A DNA stretch of 64,000 nt. Origin: a phage. Of this stretch, positions 56,849 through 60,270 are shown piece by piece. Both the position numbers and the translations under genes were made by a program. The notes under the pieces were generated by a model that ran no database searches, was not told where the DNA came from, and was given only the letters and a program-made list of their open reading frames with translations. The DNA lies in the sequence record PV467748.1; one strand, written 5' to 3'. The first letter of the stretch is position 1. Each line of letters starts with the position of its first letter.

Positions 56849-57137
56849 ATTTTTTCCAGTCAGAAATCATATGAATCTCTTGGTCATACGTCAAGAGACT
56901 GCGAGTAATAATACCCTTACACGGCCCAGAGATGAACTCGAGAGTGAAGTAAGGAACCTGTTTCATTAATCGGATGCTTGGGGCATGACATCTAAAACGA
57001 GAGCCCTTAAAGGGCCCTGACATGAATACATATTCTAATGGATAGAAATAAGCATATTCGAAATTTGCAGTAAGGTCCTCTCTTCGAACCTTACGTGAGA
57101 AATAACAGAACTCAAAAAGTTCTTCATCAGTCATCAT
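56841..57137 (-). CDS. hypothetical protein (98 aa)
   Basis: ORF only. Confidence 0.4.
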   Translation of the reverse strand: MMTDEELFEFCYFSRKVRREDLTANFEYAYFYPLEYVFMSGPFKGSRFRCHAPSIRLMKQVPYFTLEFISGPCKGIITRSLLTYDQEIHMISDWKKYV

Positions 57138-57661
57138 TGCATTCCTATCACAAAGAACAGCGGCAGAGGTTTAGAACCCTGGCACATAAATTTGTTAATC
57201 ATTACCTGGTAAGCTTCATAGAACTTATCCATCGATGGAAGGCGCATTGGCTCTTCGATAATAATCAATAATCGAGTAACTGATAGACCACGATACTTAT
57301 GGAAGTTATCTTCGTCTAAAAATGATCGCACGGTATCATATACAATAAACCCAGGACCTTCTACTTGAAGATGTGGATGAGCCTTAGAAACCCTTTTTAT
57401 TACATTACAGATTTCGCGTGACCGGTGCGAAGAACTCGACATAACAATCACATCATTACCCTTGGAAACCCAATCAGCTGCGAACTGGGCAAGGGCACTT
57501 GTTTTACCTGTTTGGCGTCCACCGTCAAGTCGAAGAGTACCAAACTCTTGCATTCTTGAAGTAGGTTCGTACCAGGTGTATTGGTTTGAGTCTAAACGTT
57601 CAATGGCGCGTTCAGCGAAGGCGTGCATTAAGGTTAGATAAATGGGAGTTAAAAATTTCAT
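57134..57661 (-). CDS. P-loop NTPase (175 aa)
   Basis: Walker A GGRQTGKTSA, Walker B LLIIIEEP. Confidence 0.5.
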   Translation of the reverse strand: MKFLTPIYLTLMHAFAERAIERLDSNQYTWYEPTSRMQEFGTLRLDGGRQTGKTSALAQFAADWVSKGNDVIVMSSSSHRSREICNVIKRVSKAHPHLQVEGPGFIVYDTVRSFLDEDNFHKYRGLSVTRLLIIIEEPMRLPSMDKFYEAYQVMINKFMCQGSKPLPLFFVIGMQ

Positions 57662-57810
57662 AGTGGTCTCTTAGTTGTGGGGCCATTCCTTGGCACATAA
57701 TTCATCCCTTTCTGCATTTACCCATTACCGCACTTGGGCTCGACCTTATTACAGGTTGGCGGGAGTCCCTCACAGAATTGTGAGGTCCAGGTTGCTCCCA
57801 TTTTTAAAGA
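57662..57810 (-). other. GC-rich structured intergenic element (possible small RNA or regulatory structure)
   Basis: nested inverted repeats (cctcaca-gaat-tgtgagg flanked by gggag/ctccc and ccgc/gcgg); GC content well above neighbours; no promoter cassette. Confidence 0.25.
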
Positions 57811-58170
57811 TTAAAGATGGTCGAGTGCCGGGTTATGAGGCTTTTCTGCTTTAGCAGTATTTTTGTGCCAATCTGATTTAGAAACACGAATTGCATCCGC
57901 ACCGTAAGAGCTCTTAAGGAGGCCCTTTTTATTGTAAACACTTATAGAAGTAAGGGTGTCACCATTCCAAGTAGCATGGACGAAGTTGGATTTAGATTTA
58001 AGTTCTTTAGCCAGGCTCTGGTTGGTAGCCATGGAAGCAAAGTCTTTACCTGTAACTTTAAAAACTTCAGATGGGTTCAGCCCTTCTTTAGCCTTAGCCA
58101 ATTGTTCAGGAGACATAGCTTCGTTAATGCGCTGAGTAGATTCAGTAATAAATTGTTGGTAAGTTTTCAT
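57811..58170 (-). CDS. internal (capsid-targeted) protein
   Basis: N-terminal MKTYQQFITE matches the T4 internal-protein capsid-targeting sequence. Confidence 0.6.
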   Translation of the reverse strand: MKTYQQFITESTQRINEAMSPEQLAKAKEGLNPSEVFKVTGKDFASMATNQSLAKELKSKSNFVHATWNGDTLTSISVYNKKGLLKSSYGADAIRVSKSDWHKNTAKAEKPHNPALDHL

Positions 58171-58212
58171 ATTATTCCTTAAGTTGATAGAAGTATTCTA
58201 TCACGGATTTAA

Positions 58213-58629
58213 TTAAGCGTAAATAGCCTTGCCGTAATGTTTGTACCAGGTAGGACGCTGTGCAATTTTTTCGTCCAAACGAGCTTGTGAAATGGCGATA
58301 GAAGCTTCGTGAGGAACATAATCACCACGGAATTCCTGAGGAATGTCACTAATGTCCTGGACCGTAGTATCCTTGATATTAAAGCCACGTTTTAAACATT
58401 CAGCTATAAGCTCAATTTGACGCTTACGTAAAAATTCAAGCTTATCATAAAAGAATGTAACGTGGCCTGTACCAAGGATAAAAGTAGGACTGATTTTAAA
58501 ATCACGAACACGTTTACCGTTAGCAACATGCTTACGAACTGCACCGAAAACACGTGGTAATTCACGATATTCGGCCATTAAGTGTTGGTCAGCCAATTCA
58601 GATACTAAGGTAAGGTTGATACGAGTCAT
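58213..58629 (-). CDS. denV: endonuclease V (pyrimidine-dimer DNA glycosylase)
   Basis: 138 aa, near-identical to remembered T4 DenV ([31 protein letters not shown]...). Confidence 0.95.
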
Positions 58630-59390: not shown

Positions 59391-59789
59391 TTATTTGTAA
59401 GTTTTCATCCAATTCTTGAACAAAGCCGCGACGTCTTTCTCTTTAACGTTCAGTTTAACGTCCAGCATTTTGCCACCAGCGGCACGTGTCTGACGAATCT
59501 TAGCCGTACCGGTTTCGCCGTTCCACTCAACATAATACTGTCCGGTGTTCATAGCGATACCATCGCCATAGTCTTCATTTTTAGAAGTGGTGAATGCCAG
59601 CTTCATAGTCTTAGATACACGAGCCTGCATGCCTGACTGTAGAGCGTTACGAACGCGAATAACCTGAGGAGTGGCCTGGGTCAGGTTCTCGTTCAGTTCT
59701 TCGGTGAACTCTTCGGATTCGAACATCGCCAAAAGTTCTTTAGATGCAGGAACTACATTCTCTGCGATAAATTCATTATAAGTTTTCAT
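59391..59789 (-). CDS. internal (capsid-targeted) protein, 132 aa
   Basis: N-terminal [10 protein letters not shown]; C-terminus ends ...NWMKTYK. Confidence 0.6.
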
Positions 59790-60270
59790 ATGCTTTCCAA
59801 GTACCTGTTTTAAATGTTGAAATCACGCGCTTAGCACGGTTAGGAGTTTGCTTGTACCAACGAGATTGAGCCAGGTTAACTGCCGCATCGTTCCAACGTT
59901 TCTGTTGGAGCATACGTAAAGAGTTAGTGAACCCTGCTACACCTGCTTCACCCATTTGGAAGACCATATTAATCAATGCGCAACGACGAACTTCGTCCAA
60001 CACATCATAAACCGGTTTCAATTTAGGATTACGCATTATAGCTCTACGAGCATTTTCCACTGAACGATTAAAGAGTTGTTCGGCTTCAGCCATAGTAATA
60101 CGACCATTACAAACTCGACCCATAAGCTTATCAAGTTCAGCGCGGGCAACATCTTTAGATGGGTTCTTGGTAACTAACTGGCCAATACCAATAGTCCAAT
60201 AACCTTCAGTGTCTTTATAAAGATTTAAATCAAGACCTTCGTCTTGACGTAACATATCAAAAATATCCAT
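59776..60270 (-). CDS. e: lysozyme (endolysin, T4 e type)
   Basis: 164 aa; [23 protein letters not shown]...[29 protein letters not shown] collinear with remembered T4 lysozyme. Confidence 0.95.

Follow-up and report, generated by a model that had tools for sequence, protein, structure and literature searches.

Alignment of homologous loci showed that the intergenic region at positions 57662–57810 of the phage DNA analysed here (a stretch of 64,000 nucleotides, below called the window) encodes, on the sense strand of its flanking genes, a predicted pseudoknotted three-way-junction RNA of 88 nt that is conserved. Its pairing is kept with compensatory changes both in homologous regions and in unrelated phages. 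Such strong conservation supports a functional structured RNA; the initial annotation had proposed a small stable RNA, a processing site or a protein-binding structure here. We rate the element as an RNA family new to Rfam 15, of a general kind that is known, namely phage structured RNAs near tRNA genes.

Gene setting and predicted fold

The source phage is a Dhakavirus, T4-type, of the JS98/JS10/WG01 group, and a 1,151-nt query around the intergenic element matched WG01, PSD9 and JS10 at 93–95%. The minus strand carries every gene near 57662–57810, and the element is thus to be read on this strand. The locus comprises the following features.

59776–60270, minus strand: lysozyme gene e, near the element
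Between e and denV, minus strand: two internal-protein genes
58213–58629, minus strand: denV
57811–58170, minus strand: internal-protein-like gene upstream of the element (PHROG 3966; the product starts MKTYQQFI)
57662–57810: intergenic region, which holds the RNA element
57682–57693, minus strand: hairpin GCCA-AGGAA-UGGC, past the element and ahead of the vs.8 ribosome-binding site
57134–57661, minus strand: vs.8, encoding a P-loop protein of 175 aa, downstream of the element (PHROG 1488)
Downstream of vs.8, minus strand: vs.7

The region had been described as lying between an internal-protein gene and a P-loop protein gene, and its limits coincide with the stop of the gene at 57811–58170 and the start of vs.8. 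Homologues of the former are annotated as internal head or virion proteins. Residues 1–175 of Vs.8 cover positions 1–177 of the PHROG 1488 profile from end to end, and the name vs.8 is given to the homologue in the JS10, WG01, CC31 and PEi20 records. The region is also GC-rich, as had been noted: its GC content of 48.3% ranks within the top 2% of 149-nt windows of the same sequence (39.4 ± 4.2%), and the 88-nt element reaches 54.5%. In agreement with the claim that a promoter cassette is lacking, no sigma-70-like promoter was found inside the element, nor was an intrinsic terminator. The nearest promoter-like site precedes the internal-protein-like gene (58195–58223, minus strand; TTTACG and TAGAAT spaced by 17 nt, with an upstream TG) and is likely to be the source of the element-bearing transcript.

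In T4-like loci the hairpin at 57682–57693 is kept as GCCA(N)GGAA(N)GGC, and members outside the T4-likes lack it. It probably belongs to the vs.8 leader rather than to the RNA family. The GGA in its loop is reminiscent of CsrA-type binding hairpins. A 15-codon upstream open reading frame (MNYVPRNGPTTKRPL) spans 57658–57705 (minus strand), and its terminal AUGA overlaps the vs.8 start codon. The T4 counterpart has 16 codons and likewise ends in AUGA, but it crosses the hairpin in another frame, which leaves the peptide unconserved. The arrangement could reflect translational coupling or chance.

The RNA itself is composed of the following parts, listed in 5′ to 3′ order.

57712–57799, minus strand: whole structured RNA element, 88 nt, with its 5′ end at 57799; bounded by the 5′ strand of Pa and the 3′ strand of the pseudoknot
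57795–57799, minus strand: Pa 5′ strand GGGAG, pairing with CUCCC at 57761–57765
57786–57794, minus strand: internal loop J5′ (CAACCUGGA), whose CUG at 57788–57790 is the 5′ strand of the pseudoknot
57768–57785, minus strand: Pb hairpin CCUCACA-AUUC-UGUGAGG, recovered by minimum free energy (MFE) folding
57761–57765, minus strand: Pa 3′ strand CUCCC, pairing with GGGAG at 57795–57799
57757–57760, minus strand: P1 5′ strand GCCA, pairing with U57724 and GGU at 57720–57722, with G57723 bulged
57743–57756, minus strand: P2 hairpin ACCU-GUAAUA-AGGU, 100% paired
57725–57742, minus strand: junction core, consisting of C-G-A, P3 (GC/GC, loop CCAAGU) and GGUAA; centre of the covariance-model hit
57720–57724, minus strand: P1 3′ strand U(G)GGU, pairing with GCCA at 57757–57760
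57712–57719, minus strand: linker AAAUG and pseudoknot 3′ strand CAG (57712–57714), the subject of the tail-swap test, with lineage-specific helices

In this fold Pa encloses Pb and is followed by a three-way junction of P1 with its bulged G, P2 and P3, which is enclosed in turn by an H-type pseudoknot between the internal loop of Pa and the 3′ tail. The core, ACCUGUrrnAAGGUC.AG.C...GCGGUAA, is nearly invariant, as are the junction strands C-N-A-G and GGUAA. Among the 59 aligned core sequences G, CC and GCGGUAA show almost no variation or none, and about 20 unpaired nucleotides of the element do not vary. The initial annotation had listed the inverted repeats cctcaca/tgtgagg and gggag/ctccc, both of which are present and correspond to Pb and Pa; the most conserved part, the three-way junction with the pseudoknot, had escaped it.

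The core segment 57725–57752 (minus strand) contains GUAA(c/u)AAGGU followed a little further on by GCGGU, a combination that also occurs at the 3′ end of E. coli 16S rRNA (AAGUCGUAACAAGGUAACCGUAGGGGAACCUGCGGUUGG). The pairings predicted for the two are not the same, and members vary in their P2 loop; the likeness is possibly a coincidence.

Covariation and strand

Two alignments were used, one of 59 distinct core sequences (A1) for P1, P2 and P3 and one of 31 T4-like sequences (A2) for Pa. Across P1, P2 and P3, 90.4% of the cells in A1 were paired, compared with 76.2% in shuffled alignments and at most 42% when the partners were slid, and the covariation score was 0.374 as against 0.104 in the shuffles. 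The three inner pairs of P1 appear as two to five pair types each and are never unpaired in the 59 sequences. The first varied pair is AU in 30, UA in 10, CG in 7, GC in 6 and UG in 6, the second is CG in 34, GC in 14, UA in 7, AU in 3 and GU in 1, and the third is CG in 47 and GC in 12. The bulged base, which follows the first pair, is a purine. P2 is closed by A-U in 56 sequences and by G-C in the other three, reads ACCA/UGGU in Vibrio phage 1.012.O and always carries a GUrrnA loop; the varied pair of P3 is CG in 55 of the 59 sequences and UA in three. Two other pairing schemes were tried and rejected: P1 without the bulge was clearly worse than the bulged model, and a CC/GG version of P3 was worse than the one adopted.

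Within the T4-like phages all five pairs of Pa are changed on both sides (5/5 among the 31 sequences of A2; one pair is GC in 12, CG in 9 and AU in 7), so that the gggag/ctccc pairing proposed earlier is conserved. Pb is held in the equivalent place by CCUCAUG...UAUGAGG in T4 and is swapped for a longer hairpin in other T4-like lineages. A third helix of the initial annotation, ccgc/gcgg, did not hold up: it can be drawn in the sequence but does not differ from shuffled controls across the 59 homologues and has no double-sided change. Altogether, compensatory changes were found in Pa, P1, P2, P3 and the pseudoknot, several of them stemming from tandem duplicate copies.

The pseudoknot was assessed by a tail-swap test over 12 T4-like lineages with one representative each. 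Complementarity of the loop to its own tail was 4.33, compared with 3.25 ± 0.21 for swapped tails, and none of 20,000 permutations reached 4.33. While the helix is CUG/CAG in the window and in T4, other T4-like lineages carry CCG/CGG, CCGA/UCGG, UCGCCGA/UCGGUGA, AAACCG/CGGUUU, ACAC/GUGU and CACAC/GUGUG, and CCUGG/UCAGG, ACCA/UGGU, CCAG/UUGG and CUCGA/UCGAG also occur. By inspection, the loop–tail pairing covaries in Ivi-like phages (CUCCGG/CCGGAG versus UUCCGG/CCGGAA), and an equivalent pairing, CGGA/UCCG, recurs in phages of 46 kb. An automated search for Pa and the pseudoknot in all lineages was noisy (3.95 versus 3.64), and the tail-swap test within the T4-likes was used in its place.

G-U pairs, for example the 18 at one position of P1, fit the gene-sense strand only, which identifies the minus strand as the RNA strand. 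The folding energy, in contrast to the covariation, is ordinary, with MFE z-scores of −0.01 for the 149-nt region in gene-sense orientation, −0.35 for its opposite strand and −0.90 for the 88-nt core. The case for structure is thus made by covariation and not by stability, and the earlier description of the region as highly structured stands in the former sense and finds no support in the latter.

Distribution and genomic contexts

A covariance model built from A1 gave a single strong hit in the window, at 57714–57765 on the minus strand (67.7 bits, E ~1e-22). By BLAST the 149-nt region matched 1,069 phage records, and the 52-nt core matched 1,090 of 50,697. Nucleotide identity between the window and T4 is 90.9% for the element, compared with 91.8% for denV, 73.6% for e, 66% for the linker to the vs.8 start, 56.7% for vs.8 and 53.4% for vs.7. 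The T4 copy occupies 64.83–64.92 kb of its genome. A 32-nt core is found in unrelated phages as well: rV5-like Vequintavirus, the 44.9-kb phage Ivi, the 46-kb IMG/VR phages and other contigs, the Pseudomonas phages pf16 and KIL4, Vibrio phages of three genome sizes and Shewanella phage KASIA. A metagenome scan added few further lineages. In the BLAST summary 18 records named Campylobacter phage match the 52-nt core; a scan of the complete Campylobacter phage NCTC12673 with the covariance model gave no copy.

Tandem copies are present in PEi20-type phages (L033 1495–1650; also L020, L024 and L243) and in L180 (828–964). The second PEi20-type copy has diverged (P2 GCCU/AGGC, P3 GU/AC) with its fold intact.

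No match was obtained in 5,426 complete E. coli genomes by blastn, so that at this level the element is neither prophage-borne nor a mimic of host sequence. The pattern AAGGTCGAGCCNAAGNGCGG, run against GTDB with one genome per bacterial species, returned 93 hits, all of which were coding noise (IKVEPKGG in CoA-transferase-like genes) and none of which had the P2 hairpin; a scan of viral contigs with GAGCCNAAGNGCGGTAA likewise returned mostly coding noise. The 4,227 families of Rfam 15 gave no hit in the window at gathering thresholds, in keeping with an uncatalogued RNA. At E ≤ 10 only chance-level matches to SAM-II (16 bits, threshold 44), mir-611 and BsrG appeared in 57600–57880; all three miss the junction core, and the mir-611 match falls across Pb on the other strand. 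Rfam scans of 14 member loci found tRNAs only, and those of the loci L183 and L013 noise only. The earlier statement that the region could not be folded into a tRNA cloverleaf was borne out: ARAGORN predicted no tRNA gene in the window, the Rfam tRNA model did not hit the element in any locus, and the fold is a three-way junction with a pseudoknot as opposed to the four-way cloverleaf. A description of the element was not found in the searchable literature; it could be among the 10,006 viral candidate RNAs catalogued in 2023.

In T4-like phages the element stands constantly just upstream of vs.8, whereas the preceding gene varies, being denV in T4 and PEi20, an internal-protein gene in HY03 and JS10 and a hypothetical gene in WG01 and CC31. 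In approximately 1,000 T4-like genomes it is fixed about 60 nt upstream of vs.8 or, rarely, of an internal-protein gene. In the T4-like contig L021 (IMG/VR 2974754850), the gene after the element starts MKTYKEFI and is of the internal-protein type, and the link to vs.8 is therefore not absolute.

Outside the T4-likes, a tRNA gene on the same strand lies within about 1.1 kb in 19 of approximately 26 lineages examined. In locus L183, Pa starts 7 nt past the CCA end of a tRNA-Ser, and an intrinsic terminator follows the element. In pf16 an acyl-carrier-protein gene carries it in its 3′ UTR, and the depositors have annotated a terminator and then a promoter behind it. In Vibrio phage 1.012.O the element comes after tRNA-Tyr, by the strand call of ARAGORN, and before a terminator-like hairpin; ARAGORN places this tRNA (L249 1007–1080; MG592397) on the strand of the motif, and in the GenBank table of MG592397 both it and the adjacent CDSs are on the other strand. 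A sigma-70-type promoter follows the element in rV5-like and Ivi-like phages, and some non-T4 copies precede a portal gene.

Long hairpins flank the motif about 100 nt to either side in the 46-kb phages (L011, L013, L022, L026, L035 and L182), and their 3′ strands end in GUGCUCUU(U), then UCGUUGUGA. This GUGCUCUU(U) ending resembles the boxA antitermination consensus. A weak tRNA-like hit of 15.6 bits was seen at L013 10652–10718.

Candidate functions and comparison with known RNAs

With moderate confidence, we favour the reading that the element is a self-contained RNA module, probably excised or stabilized as a discrete species, whose invariant junction docks a conserved partner. Its transcription would begin at the promoter-like site ahead of the internal-protein gene, as part of an early polycistronic message, and it would act as RNA. 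One and the same core, placed upstream of vs.8 in T4-likes and at tRNA clusters, 3′ UTRs and terminators elsewhere, suggests a portable module rather than a sensor dedicated to one downstream gene. The compact pseudoknotted fold might yield a discrete, nuclease-resistant RNA, cut at A/U-rich flanks from tRNA-type or early transcripts, and the invariant junction may offer a docking surface to a partner common across hosts or phages. Candidate partners are a protein or an RNA of the translation or tRNA machinery. We infer the discrete species from genomic context only: such an RNA would fit the copies that follow a tRNA directly and have a terminator behind them, and the one that a 3′ UTR holds ahead of its annotated terminator. 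The fixed place upstream of one gene and the tandem copies, which are typical of cis-acting leaders, argue against this reading, and so does the unremarkable folding energy of the 88-nt core (z = −0.9). In addition, the element may accompany tRNA genes because untranslated genes are transcribed together, with no function in common.

A switch specific to vs.8 appears less likely than the self-contained module. This alternative, that the element is a cis-regulatory leader in T4-likes which sets translation or stability of the vs.8 message as a riboswitch-like aptamer or as a protein- or tRNA-binding leader, is in our judgement rather doubtful. It would explain why the element immediately precedes vs.8 whichever gene lies before it, why a second conserved hairpin stands between element and ribosome-binding site and why two tandem copies precede vs.8 in PEi20-type phages; invariant junction nucleotides together with a pseudoknot also resemble aptamer architecture, and a conserved aptamer-like structure with covariation is indeed what was found. 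However, copies outside the T4-likes have no common downstream gene, being followed by a terminator and a new promoter (pf16, L183), a sigma-70-type promoter (rV5-like phages, Ivi) or tRNAs. Placement upstream of functionally related genes was not seen, as vs.8 follows in T4-likes only; an expression platform was not found either, inspection revealing no alternative pairing of the element with the vs.8 ribosome-binding site or with terminators, and no known function of vs.8 hints at a ligand.

Another candidate is a new class of self-cleaving ribozyme that would process polycistronic or tRNA-containing transcripts, in the way reported for HDV-like ‘theta’ ribozymes near phage tRNAs; we regard it as unlikely. 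The element shares the nested double-pseudoknot topology of HDV, with Pa in the place of P1, Pb of P3, the pseudoknot of P2 and the junction domain of P4. It is compact, has about 20 invariant unpaired nucleotides and is strongly associated with tRNA genes, starting as near as 7 nt past a tRNA 3′ end. On the other hand, the Rfam ribozyme families gave no hit, even at E ≤ 10. The G-U wobble that closes P1 at the cleavage site of HDV-like ribozymes is replaced by G-C (window, T4) or A-U (JS10, CC31, L183) in the first pair of Pa, and the linker equivalent to J4/2 has no conserved C in the place of the catalytic one, reading AAAUG in the window and AAAUA in T4. Moreover, the most conserved part of the element sits at P4, where HDV-like ribozymes vary most, and one or two copies per genome are found, which are not repeat-associated.

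Quite improbable, in our view, is a cis-acting role in transcript protection, whether by modifying RNA polymerase for read-through of terminators, in the manner of put and EAR RNAs, or as a stabilizer that blocks nucleases from neighbouring untranslated RNA. The sense orientation within transcription units, often just before intrinsic terminators or in long untranslated tRNA regions, would suit such a role, as would a core conserved over phages of several gammaproteobacterial hosts, which a conserved host machine as partner would lead one to expect. The flanking hairpins of the 46-kb phages, moreover, end in GUGCUCUUU, which resembles boxA. Against this role, Rfam scans revealed no similarity to put or EAR, T4-likes have no terminator after the element, and the promoter that follows it in rV5-like and Ivi-like phages leaves no obvious need for read-through.

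That the region is protein-coding, as an N-terminal extension of vs.8 or as a small open reading frame with incidental structure, is very hard to reconcile with the data: a 660-nt vs.8 starting inside the element in NC_000866, a ‘hypothetical protein’ under the match in several records and a 27-codon frame across the core in the window speak for it, but most records have no annotation at the match, the 27-codon frame is closed by a stop in T4 and the two phages do not share their open frames, none of the three codon positions of the core varies across families and the helices change by paired substitution, PHROG 1488 spans vs.8 from residue 1 to 175, and an in-frame TAA lies 12 nt before the conserved vs.8 start in the window. 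The same TAA (region 57662–57673), together with the coverage of the 175-aa form by PHROG 1488, makes the T4 annotation (NC_000866 64253–64912, corresponding to L186 754–1413; 219 aa) appear over-extended by 44 codons. As judged from these comparisons, the vs.8 start inside the element in T4 is most likely such an over-extension.

Few genomes have been studied as much as those of T4 and its relatives, and still the element is unannotated in nearly all 1,090 records, and the T4 reference record appears to mistake it for the N-terminus of Vs.8. Conservation above that of most neighbouring genes, the spread over phage families and host genera and the tracking of tRNA clusters point to a general RNA function in virulent phages. 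The structure and the covariance models provide an experimental target in T4 and a new family for RNA databases and phage annotation. More speculatively, and with clear reservation, the element might be the founding member in T4 of a new functional RNA class, such as a new self-cleaving ribozyme, an aptamer that senses a ligand, or an RNA that as decoy or dock captures a conserved host factor of the tRNA or translation machinery. If the last were true, it could, for example, counter a tRNA- or ribosome-targeting defence.

Several known systems invite comparison. Riboswitch aptamers built from a three-way junction and a pseudoknot are alike in their invariant junction, covarying helices, occasional tandem arrangement and, in T4-likes, 5′ leader position; they differ in that the element has no shared class of downstream genes and no expression platform was found, many copies ending transcription units instead. 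HDV-like and theta ribozymes share the nested double-pseudoknot topology, and the element, too, often lies near phage tRNAs; it is unlike them in lacking the 5′ G-U and the J4/2 C and in carrying its conserved domain where their P4 is dispensable. GOLLD and ROOL are large structured RNAs of unknown function that are carried by phages and often stand beside tRNA genes; they are Rfam families of several hundred nucleotides, to which the element with its 88 nt is unrelated. The T4 stable RNAs rnaC and rnaD (species 1 and 2), whose function is to our knowledge still unknown after decades, are phage-encoded, approximately 120–140 nt long and co-located and co-oriented with phage tRNA genes. Homology to them was considered and rejected, as no sequence or motif relation was seen and the covariance model found the denV–vs.8 copy alone in the T4 region that contains both. 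Unlike rnaC and rnaD, the T4 copy of the element lies 6 kb from the tRNA cluster.
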